From contig CAKSLQ010000003.1 of the NCBI GenBank assembly GCA_934467415.1, positions 77,957 through 141,956 of the forward strand: a stretch of DNA of 64,000 nt, in the 5' to 3' direction. Of this stretch, positions 9,641-61,761 are shown piece after piece. Positions within the stretch are counted from its first letter, which is position 1. Each line of letters starts with the position of its first letter. The notes under the pieces are model-generated. The model made no database searches. It worked only from the letters and a program-made list of their open reading frames with translations, and was not told where the DNA came from. The DNA comes from an uncultured Eubacteriales bacterium. Its GTDB lineage: Bacteria > Bacillota > Clostridia > Oscillospirales > CAG-272. The translations under genes were made by a program, and so were the position numbers.

Positions 9641-9730
9641 CCATATTGGAGTTGTTTTTCGCGGATTCTGCATCCGCCTGCGCCGGTCAAGGCGGCGGGG
9701 GTAGGCGATGTTTGCGCAAAAGGAAACAAA

Positions 9731-9778
9731 GCCTTCCCCAGTGGGGGAAGGTGTCGGCGGAGCCGACGGATGAGGTGT
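9731..9778 (-). repeat. solo HP-I arm (3'-arm type)
   Basis: GCCTTCCCC-AGTG-GGGGAAGG-T-GTCGGC-GGA-GCCGAC-GGATGAGGTGT. Nearly identical to the arm at 28513-28560. Confidence 0.8.
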
Positions 9779-9843: not shown

Positions 9844-9985
9844 CCGGTAGGGGTCGGCGCCCTCGACGACCCGCGCTCACCTTAGTGCAGGCGGGTGATT
9901 CGTGAATCGCCCCTACGGGATTGCAAAGGTTTTCGCGCACCGCACACCATTTTCACCGTAGGGCGGGGGCTTGCTCCCGCCGCAA
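9844..9985. repeat. mosaic of shared intergenic modules
   Basis: CCGGTAGGGGTCGGCGCCCTCGACGACCCGC (9844-9874) is the reverse complement of pieces at 55485-55499, 55587-55598 and 61565-61582. GTAGGGCGGGGGCTTGCTCCCGCCGCA (9958-9985) recurs at 55622-55648. Confidence 0.75.
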
Positions 9986-10007: not shown

Positions 10008-10118
10008 ACCTCCCTCGGTGAGGGAGGTGGCACGGCAACGCCGTGACGGAAGGAGTCTTGCTCTCTGCAAAACTCCCCCAGTCACCTATCGGTGACAGCC
10101 CCCTCAGCGAGGGGGCTG
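10008..10118 (-). repeat. HP-II five-hairpin element, copy 1 (inverted relative to the other two)
   Basis: Reverse complement aligns end to end with 50671-50778 and 61613-61718. Five consecutive stem-loops. Confidence 0.85.
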
Positions 10119-21685: not shown

Positions 21686-21852
21686 AAGTATTCTGCGTAT
21701 CCTCCGTGTTGTCGGACGGTTACCCGTCGGTTTTGCCGGAAGATGCGGCGGCAGTCCGCCGTCGGAGCATCCGCCGAATGGGCAGGCGAGCCTGCCGCTC
21801 TCGATAACTCCGATCCTCGTTAACCGCGCGGTGCGCGGTCTGGCGCTAAAGG
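21686..21852 (-). ncRNA. glmS: glmS ribozyme (GlcN6P-activated)
   Basis: The minus strand reads ..UUU-AGCGCCAGACCGCG..GGUUAACGAGGAUCGGAGUUAUCGAGAGCGG..UUCGGCGGAUGCUCC.., matching the conserved glmS core and cleavage-site context. Lies directly 5' of glmS. Confidence 0.9.
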
Positions 21853-21934
21853 CGCGGCACATGTGCCGACGCCCTTTTCATGAGCGTATATTTTCTGCGG
21901 CTCCGCCGCGGAAAAACAAAATATGAAATCCCGT

Positions 21935-28383: not shown

Positions 28384-28512
28384 TGCCGCAAGCCGACTTG
28401 CTTGATAATCATAAAGCGGCGCCGTCTTGCGGCAAGTCTGTACAAAATCTGCTGTGCCGTGGACGCAGCCATTGACAAAGTGTATATGTGAAGTGTAATG
28501 CTTGCGCTTATA

Positions 28513-28985
28513 GCCTTCTCCAGTGGGAGAAGGTGGCGGCGCAGCCGTCGGATGAGGTGTTTACGACAGCTGCAAGCTGTCGTAATCCAAGCACAGCTTG
28601 TCCAGTATATCTGCGGTTACAGAACCGAAGTTTTTGCGGATACTATCATTGGAATAACGAAGCACAGTAATCCCCCACAGGGCAAGCTTCTCATCTCTTT
28701 GTGCATCAGTTTGTACATGTGCATCGGACAGATGCTGTTTTCCGTCTACTTCAATCGCTATTTTTTTCTCTGCAATATAAAAGTCCAGAATATAGTTTTC
28801 AATATTGTGTTGACGCCTCACATTGCAGGGAAGTTTTTTCAGAAAGTCATACCAAAGATGCTTTTCTTCCGGTGTCATATTTTTACGAAGCGTTCGCGCG
28901 TTTTGGACAAGCTTTTTATTATATGGCAGCATGGCTACTCCTCATCCACCGCTGACGCGGTCCCCCTTCTCCCGCAGGAGAAGGC
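28513..28985 (-). mobile_element. candidate selfish element: DUF559 endonuclease ORF bracketed by double-hairpin inverted arms (HP-I, full-length form)
   Basis: Arms at 28513-28560 and 28938-28985. Each reads GCCTTCTCC-N4-GGAGAAGG, then a second hairpin, then GGATGAGG, in inverted orientation. The interior is visibly AT-rich compared with the flanks. The same arms occur without an ORF elsewhere in the window. Confidence 0.55.
28561..28932 (-). CDS. DUF559 domain endonuclease (Vsr-like PD-(D/E)XK fold)
   Basis: ..NYILDFYIAEKKIAIEVDGKQH..RDEKLALWGITVLRYSN.. is the typical DUF559 core. SD GAGGAG lies 5 nt before the ATG. Confidence 0.8.
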   Translation of the reverse strand: MLPYNKKLVQNARTLRKNMTPEEKHLWYDFLKKLPCNVRRQHNIENYILDFYIAEKKIAIEVDGKQHLSDAHVQTDAQRDEKLALWGITVLRYSNDSIRKNFGSVTADILDKLCLDYDSLQLS

Positions 28986-29018
28986 TTTTTTAGTTGTTCG
29001 GCAAAGCTTGTTCGCCCC

Positions 29019-34550: not shown

Positions 34551-34652
34551 CCGTACAGCGGGATGCGGAATACGCACCGCAGGGCAAAGCCCTTTCGTCC
34601 GCTCCGCAACTCCCCGTCGGGGCGGCACTGTACGCGCGCATTCCTACTCTGT
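34551..34652 (-). promoter_or_regulatory. THF (tetrahydrofolate) riboswitch aptamer
   Basis: The minus strand reads ACAGAGUAGGAAUGCGCGCGU..GGGGAGUUGCGGAGCGGACGAAAG..CUGCGGUGCGUAUUCCGCAUCCCGCUGU. This matches the conserved AGAGUAG / GCGU / CGCGGUG / GCAUCCGCU elements of the THF-I class. Located 5' of folT. Confidence 0.8.
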
Positions 34653-34716
34653 AATTTAATCAGTTGAAAAATTCTGTTCTTCAACTGCCGACTCTATTAT
34701 AGTCGCTTTCTGCGGC

Positions 34717-50670: not shown

Positions 50671-50778
50671 CAGCCCCCTCGGTGAGGGGGCTGTCACCGA
50701 TAGGTGACTGGGGGAGTTTTGCAGAGAGCAAGACTCCTTCCGTCGCCGTTCGGCGACACCTCCCTCACCGAGGGAGGT
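50671..50778 (+). repeat. HP-II five-hairpin element, copy 2
   Basis: CAGCCCCCT..AGGGGGCTG, TCACC-GATA-GGTGA, GGAGTTTTGC..GCAAGACTCC, GTCGCC-GTTC-GGCGAC, CCTCCCT..AGGGAGG. Confidence 0.85.
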
Positions 50779-54710: not shown

Positions 54711-55361
54711 ATGACGGTCATGTATTTGGTGCGCCACGGGCAGAGCGAGGGCAATGTACGCGGCGGATTTGCGGGGCGCGTGGACTACGCGCTCTCCGAA
54801 AAAGGCGCGCGGCAGGCGCGCCTCACGGCGGATTTTCTCGGCGGCGTGCATCTCGACGCCGTCTGCGCAAGCCCGCTGCGCCGCGCGCAGGAGACAGCCG
54901 CACCGATCGCGGCCGATCACGGGCTTGTGACAGAGACGCGCGCGGGGCTTGTCGAGTTCGATTTCGGCGACTGGGAGGGGCTCGCGCCCGACGTGCTGAA
55001 TGCCCGCTTCCCGGACGCCGTGCCGACCTGGAAGTATCACCTGCCCGACGTCGCCTGCCCGCACGGCGAGCGCATGGCGGACTGCTTTGCGCGGGCCGGG
55101 GCGGAATTTGCCGCGCTTGCGCGGGACTATGCCGGGCGCGACGTCTGCGTCGTGACGCACGGCGCGTTTCTCAAGTGCCTTTTCTGCGTGCTGCACGGTC
55201 TGCCGCTTCGTGAGATCGACCGCGTGCCGTGGGCGGACAACGCCTCGGTGACCAAGGTCGTCATCGGTGCGGACGGCGTCCCCGCGATCGAATACGAGAA
55301 TTACAGCGCCCATATGGGCGACCTCGTCACCGGCGTCTCCCGCACCCTCACCGAGAAGTAG
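54711..55361 (+). CDS. histidine phosphatase family protein (phosphoglycerate mutase-like)
   Basis: LVRHGQSEGN catalytic motif. ATG 54711 lies 6 nt after GGAGG. Confidence 0.8.
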   Translation: MTVMYLVRHGQSEGNVRGGFAGRVDYALSEKGARQARLTADFLGGVHLDAVCASPLRRAQETAAPIAADHGLVTETRAGLVEFDFGDWEGLAPDVLNARFPDAVPTWKYHLPDVACPHGERMADCFARAGAEFAALARDYAGRDVCVVTHGAFLKCLFCVLHGLPLREIDRVPWADNASVTKVVIGADGVPAIEYENYSAHMGDLVTGVSRTLTEK

Positions 55362-55365
55362 GGGC

Positions 55366-55781
55366 GGGAACGCGCAAACCGCACGGGGGCTTACTCCCGC
55401 CGTCCGAACCCAATCTGACTTTGGCTCCTCCTGACGGGGGAGCTGTCGCCGTAGGCGACTGAGGGAGAGATAACGCAAAGCAAGGCGGGTCGTCGAGGGA
55501 TGTTTTTCGGTTTCGCTTTGCGAAATCGTCGGTGTTCAGCCGACGAAGAAAAACTCCTTAGGAACACATCGTGTTCCGGGGGTCATGACCCCTACCGGAT
55601 TGTACAAAAGACGCACACACTGTAGGGCGGGGGCTTGCTCCCGCCGCACCTGCTCATACAAAACAATCATTCCCCGGTTGTTATTTTACTTTGCAAAAGA
55701 CACCTCATCCGTCGCCGTTCGGCGACACCTTCCCCCGCTGGGGAAGGCAAAGAACGCGGGTGACCGTACCGTTCTAACCAA
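55366..55781. repeat. dense mosaic of intergenic hairpin modules
   Basis: Contains a half HP-II (55423-55468), the ~60-nt shared module (55499-55557), GTAGGGCGGGGGCTTGCTCCCGCCGCA (55622-55648) and a solo HP-I 3' arm (55700-55748). Confidence 0.8.
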
Positions 55782-55944
55782 GCCTTCCCCCTTGGGGGAA
55801 GGTGGCGTGTAATACGCCGGATGAGGGGTAGCCATTCGTCAGAATGGCGTCTCACAGCACAGAACGAGACTGCGCAGACGGATGCTTACGCATCCTACCC
55901 CTCATCAGTCAACTCCGTTGACAGCTTCCCCCAAGGGGGAAGCC
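55782..55944. repeat. HP-I miniature (gene-less, symmetric arms)
   Basis: A and B hairpins, then GGATGAGGGGTA, then three small hairpins, then TACCCCTCATC followed by B' and A' hairpins. Confidence 0.85.
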
Positions 55945-56117
55945 AAAAGACGCTTTGCGTCTCGTACGGCTCTCCCCACCGGGGAAGCCTAAGGGCGAAG
56001 AGCGCTTTCTTCTCCGCTTCCCGCAAACAACCCGCCGGAAACGGCGTATTTTTTGTATTTACTTGCCGGGCGGCGGATGCTATGATTGAAATAGGAAAAA
56101 ACGCGGAGGAAACCGAC

Positions 56118-58598
56118 ATGAAACTGGTTGCAAAACTTCTGTGCGCGGCGGCGCTCACGCTTTTGCTGTGCTTTGCGGCTTCGGCCAAAGAGGTCGTCAT
56201 CTACGAGAACAGCTTCGACGGCGCGTCCGCCCTCTCCGACTTTACCGTGCGCGGCAACTGGTCGGTGAAAAACGGCGCCGCAAATCTCGCGGCGGGCAAA
56301 TCCTCGTCGGGCTGCCTGACCTACAAAATGCCGCAAAAATACCGCGGCAAAAAGTACAAACTTGAGGTGGACTACCTCGGGCAGAGCGGCATGGGCGGCC
56401 TGCTGATCGGCGCGGACGGCGCGGGTCTCTCGTCGACGCCGTCCTACTTCTTCGGCTATACCGCATCGGTCGCGGCAAGCGGCACGAAGGGCATGTTTGC
56501 CTATTTCAACGAAGAAGGCGGCTGGGGCGACACGCTGCGCACCGGGCTTGACACCTTTGACGAGAAGGACGTCCGCCTCACGGCCGTGGTCGATCCCGCA
56601 AAGCGCGAGATCCTGTTCACGATCAAGCCGCAGGGCGGCTCGCGCGAGCTGTTTGCCATGACCTACTGCCTGCAGACGACCGAAAACGAGATGATCTACA
56701 CGTCGTTTTCGGACACGGTCGGCCTGCGCCGCGCTTACACGGCAAAGGGCAGCTTCGACAATTTCCGCGTCAGCGTCTACGAGGACGATGTCATGCCCGC
56801 GATGGGCGGCAGCGTCACGCTGTCGGGGCTTGCGTTTGCCGCCTCGGCGGACGCGGCCGTGACCGACGGCACGCTCACGGCTGGGACGGTCCTCTCGGCC
56901 GCAGACTTCGGCAGTGCCGCCGACTTTGCGGCGGACATCCGCTGCGAGCGCCGTATGCTCTTTTATTTCGGTATGCGCGATGCGAAAAACGGCTTTGCCG
57001 CCGAAATAAACCGCGCCGAGGAGACCGTGGTGCTGTATGCCGTCCGGGACGGCGCGTTTGTCTGGCTCGGCGAGCGGCATGTGCCGGTCACGGACGATTT
57101 CTGCCGCCTGCGCGCCCGTGTGCGCGATGAAGTTGTCTCGGTCTGGTACGACTGCTACGGGGAGAGCGACGACCTCTATCCGCTGATTGAGCTTGCGCAG
57201 GATGGCGCGGCCGCCGGGCGGTTCGGCGTCCTCTGCGAGGGCGGCGAAGCGAAGAACTTCACCGTGACCGGTGCGGGTGAGGCATATGCGGGCAAAACCT
57301 TTGTCAACCCGGTCTGCTACGGCGCAGACCCGGATGTGCTTTACCACGACGGCGTGTATTACCTCTACATCCGCAAGGTCGTCGGCGACGATCCGTTCAC
57401 GGTGTACACCTCGACCGATATGGTCAACTGGACGGAGCGGGGCGGGGTCTACAAGTGGCAGAAGGGCTGGAGCAGCAAGTACCACTTCATGAGTCCGAAC
57501 GTCTTTTACTGCGACGGTATGTTCTATCTGCTGTTCCAGGCGTGGAACAACGACACCGACAAGAGCGCGCGGCTGTTCTATGCCAGCGCAAAGTCGCCGC
57601 TCGGACCGTTTGAGGGCTGCACGATGCTGCACGATGTCCACGAGATCGGCGGACATCCGTTTGTGGACGACGACGGCAAGGTCTATATCACGCTCTGCCG
57701 CTTTGACTTCGGCTCAAACCTGTATATCGAGGAGGTCACGGTGAAGGACGGCGTCATCACGCCGAAGCCCGAGACCTGCAAGCTGATCCTCTATCCGCAG
57801 ACTGCCTATGAGGTCAACGGCCGCGGCCGCACGGTGGAGGGCGGCGTGCCGTGGAAGCACGGCGGCTATTATTACATGTTTTATGCCGTTGGCAGCTACA
57901 AGCTGCATTACGGGCAGAGCTATGCGGTGTCGAAGAACATCTACGGCCCGTACGAGAAGTACGAGTACAATCCGTTCCTCGTCTACAATGCGGCGGTGGA
58001 CGGCCCGGGCGACGCGGTCATCCTGCCCTCGCCGGACGGAGAGGAGCTGTATCTCGTCTACCATCAGCACAATGCGATCGGCACGGTCTCGCCGCGCATG
58101 ACCTGCATTGACCGGCTGAAATTTGTCCCGAATCCGGACGGCGGCCCCGATGTGCCGGTGACGGCGGGGCCGTCCTCCACGCCGCAGCCCGTGCCGTCCG
58201 GCGCGGCGGAGACCCCTGCGGCGGCCGAAACCAAAGTGACGCTGACGCTCGGCAGCCGGGCGGCGACGCGGAATGATACCGCCGTGACGCTGGATGCCGC
58301 GCCGCTCTCCCGCGGCGGGCGCATGATGCTGCCCATCCGCTTTGTGGCCGAGGCGTTCGGCGCGGCGGTCGGCTGGGACGGCGACACCGCCACGGCGACC
58401 GTGGCGGCCGGGGACACGGTTATCACCGTGCGGATCGGCGAAAAGCAGATCTTTGTGAACGGCAATGCCGTGCCGCTCGACACCGCCGCCTTCATCGAGG
58501 GCGGGCGCACCTATCTGCCGGTGCGCGCCGTTGCCGACGCGCTCGGCGCGGCGGTCGGCTGGGACGGCGACACCGCCACGGCGACTCTGACGAAGTGA
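56118..58598 (+). CDS. secreted GH43-like glycoside hydrolase with an N-terminal lectin-like domain and two C-terminal copper-amine-oxidase-N-like (stalk) repeats
   Basis: ATG 56118 after GGAGGA. Signal peptide. GH43-like NPVCYGADPDVLYHDGVYYLY. Duplicated ..AVGWDGDTATAT.. C-terminal repeats. Confidence 0.75.
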   Translation: MKLVAKLLCAAALTLLLCFAASAKEVVIYENSFDGASALSDFTVRGNWSVKNGAANLAAGKSSSGCLTYKMPQKYRGKKYKLEVDYLGQSGMGGLLIGADGAGLSSTPSYFFGYTASVAASGTKGMFAYFNEEGGWGDTLRTGLDTFDEKDVRLTAVVDPAKREILFTIKPQGGSRELFAMTYCLQTTENEMIYTSFSDTVGLRRAYTAKGSFDNFRVSVYEDDVMPAMGGSVTLSGLAFAASADAAVTDGTLTAGTVLSAADFGSAADFAADIRCERRMLFYFGMRDAKNGFAAEINRAEETVVLYAVRDGAFVWLGERHVPVTDDFCRLRARVRDEVVSVWYDCYGESDDLYPLIELAQDGAAAGRFGVLCEGGEAKNFTVTGAGEAYAGKTFVNPVCYGADPDVLYHDGVYYLYIRKVVGDDPFTVYTSTDMVNWTERGGVYKWQKGWSSKYHFMSPNVFYCDGMFYLLFQAWNNDTDKSARLFYASAKSPLGPFEGCTMLHDVHEIGGHPFVDDDGKVYITLCRFDFGSNLYIEEVTVKDGVITPKPETCKLILYPQTAYEVNGRGRTVEGGVPWKHGGYYYMFYAVGSYKLHYGQSYAVSKNIYGPYEKYEYNPFLVYNAAVDGPGDAVILPSPDGEELYLVYHQHNAIGTVSPRMTCIDRLKFVPNPDGGPDVPVTAGPSSTPQPVPSGAAETPAAAETKVTLTLGSRAATRNDTAVTLDAAPLSRGGRMMLPIRFVAEAFGAAVGWDGDTATATVAAGDTVITVRIGEKQIFVNGNAVPLDTAAFIEGGRTYLPVRAVADALGAAVGWDGDTATATLTK

Positions 58599-61380: not shown

Positions 61381-61420
61381 AGGTAATAAGGTAGGAAATG
61401 CAGGGCGGCGCGTTCTCCAA

Positions 61421-61559
61421 GCCTTCCCCTTGGGGGAAGGGGGACCGCACCCGCGGTGGATGAGGGATTGCAGGCAGCAGGCACAGCATTGTGTGATGCT
61501 TTGCTTGCATCAATCCCTCATCAGTCGCCTACGGCGACAGCTTCCCCAATGGGGAAGCC
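61421..61559 (+). repeat. HP-I miniature (gene-less, with 5'-arm and 3'-arm polarity like the DUF559 copy)
   Basis: Left arm ..GGGGAAGG-GGG-ACCGC-ACCC-GCGGT-GGATGAGGGATT. Right arm AATCCCTCATC-A-GTCGCC-TAC-GGCGAC-A-GCTTCCCC-AAT-GGGGAAGC. Confidence 0.85.
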
Positions 61560-61612
61560 TAAGAGGCGCCGACCCCTACCGGGTTTGTGGAGAATCTGCA
61601 CAATCTGTCTTT

Positions 61613-61718
61613 CAGCTCCCTCGGTGAGGGAGCTGTCGCCGAAGGCGACTGAGGGAGTTTTGCTCTGAGCGAAACTCCTTCCACCGCTGGCGCGGTCCCC
61701 CTCCCTCAATGAGGGAGG
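61613..61718 (+). repeat. HP-II five-hairpin element, copy 3
   Basis: Colinear with 50671-50778. Stems differ by paired substitutions. Confidence 0.85.
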
Positions 61719-61761
61719 TATAATTACTGTCCATCCCATCGAATTAAATTTCAAAAAACAC

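Follow-up and report, generated by a model that had tools for sequence, protein, structure and literature searches.

What is the 163-nt palindrome that lies between two genes at positions 55782–55944 of a stretch of DNA from an uncultured Eubacteriales bacterium, and how is it related to the nuclease genes whose flanks it resembles? The stretch, 64,000 nucleotides of contig CAKSLQ010000003.1 (positions 77,957 to 141,956; assembly GCA_934467415.1), is called the window here, and coordinates given without a locus number refer to it. A preliminary description of the locus, drawn from the DNA letters alone, had taken the element for a gene-less miniature of a hairpin-armed unit at 28512–28986 that carries a gene of the Pfam family DUF559 (MTES_1575). 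Arm alignments support this view, and membership of the element in a family of DUF559-associated, hairpin-armed palindromes that is widespread in gut Clostridia and beyond can be considered secure. How such copies come about is a matter of graded confidence: we give about even chances to a non-autonomous DNA-level element, similar to REPINs (paired repetitive extragenic palindromic, or REP, sequences) or to MITEs (miniature inverted-repeat transposable elements), that depends on a DUF559 nuclease recognizing its folded arms.

Every motif named in the preliminary description is present when the sequence is read directly, and together these motifs form two inverted arms around a centre (all positions on the + strand). 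The left arm opens with the outer hairpin G-CCTTCCCCC-TT-GGGGGAAGG (55782–55802; pyrimidine block 55783–55791, purine block 55794–55802), which aligns with 106 other arms, and continues after a T spacer (55803) with the inner hairpin GGCGT-GTAAT-ACGCC (55804–55818), of the type that we call beta. The sequence of the inner hairpin is free to vary among arms, always with retention of a Watson–Crick hairpin. The purine box GGATGAGGGGTA (55819–55830), one half of an 11-bp central stem, is the homologue of the Shine–Dalgarno box in full-length DUF559 copies and a mirror repeat of the purine block in the left outer hairpin. No DUF559 open reading frame (ORF) lies between the arms; its place is taken by a 65-nt non-coding centre (55831–55895) with hairpins at 55831–55848, 55849–55879 and 55880–55895. 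The right arm consists of the anti-box TACCCCTCATC (55896–55906), which is the other half of the central stem, an inner hairpin, GTCAAC-TCC-GTTGAC (55908–55922), of a type that we call gamma, flanked by single A spacers (55907 and 55923), and the outer hairpin GCTTCCCCC-AA-GGGGGAAGC-C (55924–55944; stem 55924–55943).

Since the 65-nt centre replaces the gene, the box and anti-box close the 11-bp stem, in which 55820–55830 pair with 55896–55906; the arms are inverted and the two boxes complementary, and the stem appears in the RNA fold as well as in both single-stranded DNA folds. In the minimum-energy fold, it encloses the three central hairpins, the two inner hairpins project as side branches and the outer hairpin sequences pair with each other to complete a rod, with local outer hairpins an equally consistent alternative because each outer sequence is itself palindromic. 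The multi-branched rod that had been proposed for RNA or single-stranded DNA is thus borne out by fold prediction, at z of about −10 and on either DNA strand: the RNA fold reaches −100.5 kcal/mol against −53.6 ± 4.7 for shuffled sequences (z = −10.0; 0 of 200 as good), and the single-stranded DNA folds reach −58.3 kcal/mol for the + strand (z = −10.3) and −60.1 kcal/mol for the − strand (z = −11.3). Chance palindromes in a G+C-rich spacer, for which the 61% G+C of the window is the sole argument, are a negligible prospect, refuted by shuffles that never fold as well and by homologues in hundreds of contigs. Two known identities were also rejected. No Rfam covariance model reached its gathering score at the site, with chance-level hits only (E ≥ 0.09) across 55350–56130, which removes a known RNA family; and the outer hairpins are followed by CAAAAG on the + strand and by TTGGTTAG on the − strand, with no T run as in an intrinsic terminator.

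The family itself is defined by its full-length units, which consist, in order, of an outer hairpin, an inner hairpin, a purine box that is also the ribosome-binding site, a DUF559 gene of about 124 amino acids, an anti-box, an inner hairpin and an outer hairpin. On the 5′ side, the sequence reads (A)AAGCCTTCTCC-TGYG-GGAGAAGG-GGGA-CCGCG..CGCGG-T-GGATGAGGAG, followed by 5–8 nt and the ATG; on the 3′ side, the stop codon is followed by ACA-CCTCATCC, an inner hairpin and CCTTCTCC-CACT-GGAGAAGGC. Arms with GGGA and T spacers are named alpha and those with single-nucleotide spacers beta, and a family arm is defined by three parts: outer hairpin (CCTTCYCC/GGRGAAGG or GCTTC../..GAAGC), inner hairpin and box (G/T-GATGAGG). 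Both arms of the element fit this definition and align at full length in the alignment of 105 arms from DUF559 loci (A1) and in that of 24 beta/gamma miniatures (A3). Of 80 DUF559 loci in Clostridia genomes of GTDB, nearly all have arms, as do rumen and gut metagenome loci; the same layout recurs at orthologous loci of related strains and, in a low-G+C rumen organism, at another locus. Among the arm pairs at DUF559 loci, 75 are spaced 350–600 nt apart and eight are gene-less, and further arm families flank DUF559 genes at loci L233, L241 and L247. DUF559 homologues number in the thousands (122–126 amino acids), many of them on short, repeat-like contigs of 0.5–1.5 kb. The 5′ arm is 94–96% identical, unpaired spacers included, where the DNA of the ORF is only 64–74% identical, so the arms are more constrained than the coding sequence.

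In the window, the full-length unit lies on the − strand, with an alpha 5′ arm (28937–28986), a DUF559 gene (28561–28932; 123 amino acids; Pfam E = 5e-27) and a beta 3′ arm (28512–28560). The preliminary description would have been undone by a lack of further homologous arms; a hidden Markov model of the arms finds eight in the window, at 9730–9778, 28512–28560, 28937–28986, 55700–55748, 55781–55828, 55898–55942, 61420–61465 and 61516–61559, which make up one full-length unit, two gene-less units and two solo arms. The two arms of the element score E = 8e-8 and 4e-5.

Several side observations were made at full-length loci. At L235–L239 (for example, L236 1500–2500), a tandem unit of about 185 bp, consisting of a promoter (TTGATATAAT), a beta 5′ arm and the first ~30 DUF559 codons, stands in two to five copies upstream of an intact gene and beside a tRNA-like 3′ end, with copy number varying between contigs of one sample. 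Locus L191, a 1145-bp contig, carries the DUF559 3′ end and gamma arm twice, 793 bp apart and at both contig ends, as could be seen with a circular molecule, with tandem duplication or with faulty assembly. At L233 (1–2950; Ruminococcaceae metagenome-assembled genome (MAG) contig SVLM01000002.1), gyrB lies between two DUF559 genes, both equipped with hairpin arms of their own, in the order SMC_N/AAA-domain gene (possibly recF), DUF559, gyrB, DUF559, gyrA. Between the DUF559 3′ arm and rplA (L001–L004, 1873–2360), the spacer measures 240, 317 or 483 bp in related strains, a difference that stems from duplicated blocks, all of them closed by a terminator-like hairpin. About 60–110 nt past the 3′ arm, L017–L043 share a conserved ..ATAAAATAAAAATTCCCACAAACCGTTTGATTGGTC, even where the upstream context differs; by its appearance, it may be the terminator of a convergent gene, or it may mark a preferred neighbourhood.

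Arm types place the element more closely. Its left arm is beta, with the single-nucleotide spacers of the 3′ arm of the window's full-length copy. Its right arm is gamma, with GCTTC..GAAGC in place of CCTTC..GAAGG and TGATGAGG in place of GGATGAGG, and its inner hairpin fits the gamma pattern (CCTCATCAGTCNNC..GNNGACAGCTTC; in full, CCTCATC-A-GTCNNC..GNNGAC-A-GCTTCYCC..GGRGAAGC), which a pattern scan of gut metagenomes found in at least 120 contigs. Both arms had been likened to the 3′ arm of the DUF559 copy, a comparison that holds for the left arm and fails for the right, and the proposal built on it, a palindromic derivative with two 3′ arms, is not supported: beta on the left and gamma on the right is the normal 5′/3′ pair of another DUF559 subfamily, found at full length at L191 (DUF559 protein 42% identical to that of the window), at L232 (a 1.6-Mb contig) and in the L235–L239 group. 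L240 is a full-length copy with alpha and gamma arms. The gamma arm also encodes PHQSA, the conserved C terminus of its DUF559 subfamily. The element is therefore an ordinary 5′-arm/3′-arm miniature of this sister subfamily.

Gene-less copies of this type are numerous, with at least about 70 distinct beta-left/gamma-right miniatures against one full-length copy in the same sample, and most have a centre of about 50 nt that forms a long stem capped by CCCG-TAAA-CGGG. The centre of our element, longer than these and of another sequence, shares ACAGCA and neighbouring bases with the centres of the 61420 copy and of L096. When its centre was searched against 1.72 Mb of related DNA, the sole match was the orthologue at L099 (94% identical), with no similarity to any DUF559 gene and no paralogues; a DUF559 remnant was considered on the strength of a shared GTAGCCAT after the box (ATG changed to ATT) and rejected as too short. 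That miniatures form subfamilies by their centres, an idea already raised, is seen in the 61420 copy: a related strain (L096) has a copy with a matching centre at another locus. As a separate observation, one sequence, AGTCTCCGCGCTAAGAGCCGCC..GGCGGTTGCGCTCC, stands in for half of an outer hairpin in many metagenome miniatures, at either end and in matching orientation (right ends in L122, L126, L136, L145, L152, L167, L183, L189, L201 and L205; left ends in L130, L133, L156, L157 and L168); this sequence may be a further repeat or may have been inserted into the loop of the hairpin.

A strain comparison, suggested as a check in the preliminary description, shows that the surroundings of the element turn over. 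The element sits in a 756-bp spacer between the end of a histidine-phosphatase (His_Phos_1) gene at 55361 and the start of a gene for a secreted GH43/Cu_amine_oxidN1 protein at 56118, and in relatives, this spacer differs in both length and element content: 132 bp with no hairpin element (L109, L110), 236 bp with one hybrid hairpin (L097 and others), 442 bp with an orthologue of the element in which the left inner hairpin is replaced by a two-hairpin insert and the right arm is truncated (L099), 756 bp with the element and its neighbours (the window) and 1415 bp with two extra genes and a miniature whose centre resembles that of the 61420 copy (L096, L098). In six relatives, the alaS–rpmH spacer has identical flanks, but no two of the six share the same set of elements. 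Elements are gained, lost and exchanged at the DNA level at orthologous sites. The two genes inserted at L096/L098 (3651–5067), beside the miniature, encode a helix-turn-helix-type regulator and a 157-amino acid protein without Pfam hits.

The gene-less copies could instead be mere relics. On such an account, only full-length units spread, for example by homing-type copying or arm recombination. Miniatures would arise by decay, through loss or replacement of the ORF, and would persist and be shuffled by nothing more than general recombination, slippage and gene conversion between the palindromic arms. Decay would be in keeping with the L099 orthologue, whose arms were remodelled around a retained centre, with the hybrid single hairpin of the short allele, with truncated or tandem DUF559 5′ segments (L235–L239), a pseudogenized copy (L024, L077) and the partial 3′ duplicate beside E. 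coli ycjD, and with the similarity of the DUF559 fold to a homing endonuclease. Yet miniature centres hold no remnant of DUF559 coding sequence; the typical 50-nt beta/gamma centre is a conserved stem with a CCCG-TAAA-CGGG loop that recurs in dozens of copies with different surroundings, a sign that the miniature is copied whole; and gene-less copies outnumber full-length copies by about 70 to 1 among the gamma arms listed. We therefore doubt that the miniatures are relics without mobilization in trans.

Whether the arms act as DNA or as RNA can be approached through their pairing. The outer helix is 99.6% paired over 107 arms, three of its pairs show compensatory changes, and no shuffle matched its pairing or covariation score. 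Only 3 of 532 pairs in the inner hairpins are G–T pairs, although at least 12 unrelated stem sequences are in use. This near absence argues for the DNA level because an RNA read off one strand would be expected to tolerate many G–U pairs; the non-Watson–Crick pairs are too few for an asymmetry test of the RNA strand to say more than ‘almost none’. Both DNA strands of the element fold equally well, and a crude ORF heuristic (26 usable cases) revealed no clear polarity relative to neighbouring genes.

An RNA-level element would nevertheless account for part of the evidence. The arms would then be structures of the DUF559 mRNA, in which pairing between box and anti-box sequesters the ribosome-binding site once the 3′ end is transcribed and the outer hairpins stabilize or terminate the transcript, and the gene-less copies would be stabilizers in 3′ untranslated regions (UTRs), terminators, insulators or a small RNA. 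In all full-length copies, the box is Shine–Dalgarno-like and lies 5–8 nt before the ATG, with the anti-box just past the stop codon, as would suit translation control; promoters stand upstream of the 5′ arm at L031, L035, L191 and L235, and E. coli ycjD likewise hides its GAATGAGG box in a hairpin. Among beta/gamma miniatures, 73% have flanks of the form AAA-GCC...GCC-TTT (20% have AAA...AAA), starting with AAA-GCC and ending with GAAGCC-TTT(T); this first form is an inverted extension of the palindrome rather than a direct repeat, and it makes most copies terminator-like on both strands, although the element itself has CAAAAG on its right. A set of 69 miniatures folds 2.6 kcal/mol better on average on the beta-to-gamma strand (48 versus 21), a weak bias among related sequences, and the DUF559 fold resembles RNA-binding, RAP-like mitoribosomal proteins. 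The element is also probably transcribed, within the 3′ UTR of the histidine-phosphatase gene, because it is placed between the stop codon (55361) and an intrinsic-terminator-like site at 56033–56055 (+ strand; CGCCGGAAACGGCG followed by a T run). That site, which lies outside the element, is the sole terminator found by the scan and is conserved in all orthologous regions; every repeat of the spacer falls between the stop codon and this site, and a promoter-like site follows at 56058–56086.

Set against these points are a G–U content of about 0.5% despite many different stems, the conservation of unpaired spacers and loops as reverse complements between the two arms, the lack of orientation bias relative to genes and of any Rfam match, and the missing T run after either outer hairpin of the element. 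The mirror-repeat relation described below has no rationale in RNA (PMC4666352), and an RNA role alone leaves the origin of hundreds of gene-less copies unexplained. An RNA-level element thus strikes us as improbable, and RNA-level regulation through the box of full-length copies could coexist with propagation at the DNA level.

The mirror relation links the outer hairpin to the purine box, which in every arm family mirrors the purine half of its own outer hairpin: GGAGAAGG with box GGATGAGG in alpha arms, AAGGGGGG with GGGGGGAT in the L233 arms, GGGAGG with GGAGGG at L275 and, in a second miniature family of the window (HP-II), GAGGGGG with GGGGGAG and GAGGGAG with GAGGGAG. Scored per arm by antiparallel purine-motif triads (G.G-C, A.A-T and T.A-T), all 100 arms had their best antiparallel match downstream of the hairpin at the box, with 8/8 triads in 60 and 7/8 in 31, and the direct register reached six or fewer in nearly all arms. 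Across nine arm types, a hairpin with its own box averaged 7.4/8, compared with 5.0/8 for cross-family combinations and 4.0/8 in the direct register, and the true assignment of hairpins to boxes was the single best of 120 permutations for five independent families. Coordinated three-way changes also fit the rule, with CCTTCCCT/AGGGAAGG accompanied by GGATGAGT and GCTTC/GAAGC accompanied by TGATGAGG.

The same layout of pyrimidine, purine and mirrored purine blocks defines the ‘potential intrastrand triplex’ repeats known as BoxC, PIT or TMECO, for which a purine-motif triplex has been demonstrated in vitro; such triplexes form in DNA, not RNA (PMC4666352), and loci with triplex-forming motifs are unstable (Holder et al. 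2015, PMC4666352). One could picture a structural repeat that needs no nuclease, a BoxC/PIT-like triplex or cruciform sequence spread by replication errors, with DUF559 adjacency reflecting a gene in unstable spots. The shared mirror-repeat architecture (PMC4666352) and the instability of the loci, which Holder et al. tie to such motifs, would be explained. The arms, however, flank DUF559 precisely, from 5–8 nt before the ATG to the stop codon, they do so in several families of unrelated sequence and in different phyla-level contexts, and the PHQSA end of one DUF559 subfamily is encoded in its gamma arm, a fit that chance adjacency cannot yield. A nuclease-independent origin is very unlikely in light of these observations.

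In the DUF559 protein, D50, E61, D63, Q66 and H67 do not vary among 39 homologues drawn from the two subfamilies, and the AlphaFold model (mean predicted local distance difference test (pLDDT) score 79) finds its best PDB matches in 3HRL (a DUF559 protein), the catalytic domain of I-Bth0305I (template modelling (TM) scores 0.62/0.77) and Vsr. On this structural model, DUF559 would have a Vsr-like PD-(D/E)XK nuclease fold with intact catalytic residues. Mitoribosomal proteins of Toxoplasma and Tetrahymena, which we take to be RAP-like domains that bind rRNA fragments, also match the model (TM ~0.55–0.60), suggesting that the fold may bind RNA as well. A defence-system identity was rejected, with only weak partial PADLOC matches (DpdF, mREase_II and HEase) and a single NCBIfam model, YcjD, below its cut-off. 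A phage- or plasmid-borne element was rejected as well: no plasmid match was found for it, phage matches were confined to arm-level similarity in unannotated fecal-virome fragments and DUF559 relatives are rare in the viral contigs of IMG/VR.

The mechanism that we favor, DNA-level propagation dependent on a DUF559 nuclease, would begin with the arms folding into hairpins in single-stranded or supercoiled DNA, possibly with a purine-motif intrastrand triplex in which the inner hairpin serves as the connecting loop. The folded arms would be recognized and nicked by a DUF559 nuclease whose gene lies elsewhere in the genome, and gene-less copies would be spread, exchanged and removed in trans, as REPINs depend on RAYTs (REP-associated tyrosine transposases) or MITEs on their parent transposons. 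The copy studied here would encode nothing, and its main effect on the host would be a recombination-prone intergenic region.

Several points weigh against this mechanism, in addition to the position of the Shine–Dalgarno-like box and the strand bias in fold energy discussed above. DUF559 genes are syntenic across related strains and species, so the full-length unit is mostly vertically inherited. Comparisons of strains and flanks revealed no transposition event, clean empty site or target-site duplication, and the ‘empty’ allele at L097, with its remaining hybrid hairpin, may have arisen by deletion. The window contains no DUF559 gene of the beta/gamma type; the arms of its one DUF559 gene are alpha and beta, of the T variant, and match the element inexactly. 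In the C variant of the arms, to which the element belongs, one triad of the putative triplex is mismatched (7/8), because the box keeps its A throughout and the partner pair is T–A in some arms and C–G in others. Finally, we know of no strand-transfer activity in a 124-amino acid nuclease.

Comparison with known systems helps to place the family. One architectural parallel is with the REP/REPIN repeats and RAYT transposases of Proteobacteria, reportedly described by Nunvar in 2010, Bertels and Rainey in 2011 and Ton-Hoang in 2012. Both systems have a low-copy, mostly vertical gene between inverted short palindromic repeats and many scattered, intergenic gene-less doublets, with hairpins that are presumably read in single-stranded DNA; many inverted doublets per genome and the same repeat flanking the gene are found in both, as a likeness of architecture only. 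The protein here is a DUF559 PD-(D/E)XK, Vsr-like nuclease rather than a Y1 HUH transposase, the arms are composite (two hairpins plus a purine box), the centre is structured and the hosts are Clostridia and other non-proteobacterial lineages.

MITEs such as the Correia elements of Neisseria and ERIC are likewise non-coding, multicopy, intergenic sequences of 100–200 bp with terminal inverted repeats, a long stem-loop and presence/absence differences between strains, and some act as terminators. The element shares their terminal inverted repeats, small size, lack of an ORF and multiple copies, but no DDE-transposase parent is known for it, the parent unit encodes only a 124-amino acid nuclease and no target-site duplication was identified. 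IS200/IS605 elements and palindrome-associated transposable elements (PATEs) also have subterminal hairpins in single-stranded DNA and gene-less derivatives, whereas the units here lack TnpA and TnpB and have ends that are inverted copies of each other, unlike the asymmetric ends of IS200/IS605. I-Bth0305I (PDB 3R3P), a multidomain protein whose gene lies in a group I intron within phage recA, shares the catalytic fold and the theme of a selfish nuclease gene within a structured nucleic-acid element (PMC3239194), but DUF559 is a bare domain of about 124 amino acids, intergenic, without an intron or intein and rare in viral contigs. Assignment of DUF559 as a Vsr-like (EDxHD) homing endonuclease gene was rejected, since the protein is a single domain of 123 amino acids at an intergenic site and the likeness of fold is limited to the catalytic domain.

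BoxC/PIT/TMECO repeats resemble the arms in the series of pyrimidine block, loop, purine block, spacer and mirrored purine block, and in being G+C-rich, intergenic, multicopy and rearranged among close strains. The antiparallel third block that marks them is found in the arm family of the element, at 7/8 for the element's own type. TMECO membership was rejected: the TMECO pattern is CCCTCNCCC-N3-6-GGGNGAGGG-N3-GGGNGAGGG (PMC4666352), whereas the arm reads CCTTCCCCC-TT-GGGGGAAGG-(17 nt with a hairpin)-GGATGAGGGG. In contrast to BoxC, the second ‘loop’ here is a hairpin of 15–20 nt, the blocks are CCTTCYCC, GGRGAAGG and GGATGAGG, and the repeats occur as inverted pairs around a gene or centre; the likeness is seen in the layout, and the triplex is putative here. 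Neither Rfam nor literature searches on DUF559 (hairpins, mobile elements), on REPIN/RAYT in Firmicutes, on MITEs of Faecalibacterium or on REP-like repeats of Clostridia turned up a DUF559-linked hairpin family, and the family is apparently undescribed.

A parallel in E. coli, which we offer as a lead and not as proof, may connect the two groups of repeats. The DUF559 gene of E. coli K-12, ycjD (L273, 3530–4340), begins within a perfect hairpin of 16 bp, which conceals the GAATGAGG box for ribosome binding, and its 3′ end runs into a BoxC-like block, with a partial duplicate of that end downstream. A full BoxC copy, the founding one, lies about 170 nt downstream of ycjD in the same variable segment. 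The BoxC sequence is present in all 5426 complete E. coli genomes, with a median of 19 copies per genome, and ycjD is present in 3378 of them (62%); in strains that lack ycjD, the whole segment, BoxC included, is replaced by eefRABCD (cf. PMC12817139). A broader proposal can be built on this parallel, which we put forward tentatively as a possibility that is probably too bold: stand-alone DUF559 proteins could be the missing partners of structured DNA repeats across phyla, whose arms would fold as a hairpin plus triplex, with BoxC/PIT beside ycjD as one branch and our element as another. The nuclease would read the folded arm and drive the spread, exchange and homogenization of gene-less copies, which would make these repeats a new, transposase-free kind of mobile or recombinogenic element.

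The window contains further repeats. A second gene-less miniature lies at 61420–61561 (+ strand), with an alpha left arm, a gamma right arm and a 50-nt centre. A solo arm, CCTCATCC-GTCGCC..GGCGAC-A-CCTTCCCC..GGGGAAGG, stands directly upstream of the element without a partner (55700–55750, − strand), and a solo beta arm detected by the arm model lies at 9730–9778 (+ strand). The HP-II family has the same architecture, with copies at 10008–10117, 50672–50778 and 61614–61719 and a partial arm at 55422–55472; its outer hairpins are AGCCCCCTC..GAGGGGGCT and ACCTCCCTC..GAGGGAGGT, accompanied by inner hairpins, and its boxes are CTGGGGGAG and GGAAGGAG. Each HP-II box mirrors its own hairpin, so box and anti-box can pair only with G–T wobbles. 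Arms resembling HP-II flank DUF559 genes at L233, L241 and L247. A hairpin of another kind, the identical 24-nt repeat GTAGGGCGGGGGCTTGCTCCCGCC, occurs at 9958–9981 and 55622–55645 within the same repeat-rich spacers, with a diverged copy in the orthologous spacers of L097 and L099.

Elsewhere in the window, a glmS ribozyme (21689–21858, − strand; 63.9 bits) and a tetrahydrofolate riboswitch (34554–34653, − strand; 94 bits) are ordinary cis-regulators that serve as taxonomic hints, and the contigs of relatives come from human and animal gut metagenomes and Clostridia MAGs. Diverged direct repeats of 69–84% identity (4467–6270/7083–8955, 15721–16252/18088–18634 and 58281–58406/58467–58592) resemble paralogous gene segments, the last pair resembling the two Cu_amine_oxidN1 domains of the GH43 protein.

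For annotation, these elements matter in that they create spurious small ORFs, and masking them is advised. The mirror rule ties their arms to E. coli's BoxC/PIT triplex repeats, for which both origin and role have been in question since the 1990s. DUF559 is among the oldest and most widespread nuclease families of ‘unknown function’, with thousands of stand-alone copies of about 120 amino acids, and the partnership with the arms, together with the swarms of gene-less copies, gives it a testable role as a structure-specific nuclease serving palindromic repeats. Such a role, if true, would explain why assemblies of gut Clostridia break at DUF559 genes and why intergenic regions can differ completely between close strains.

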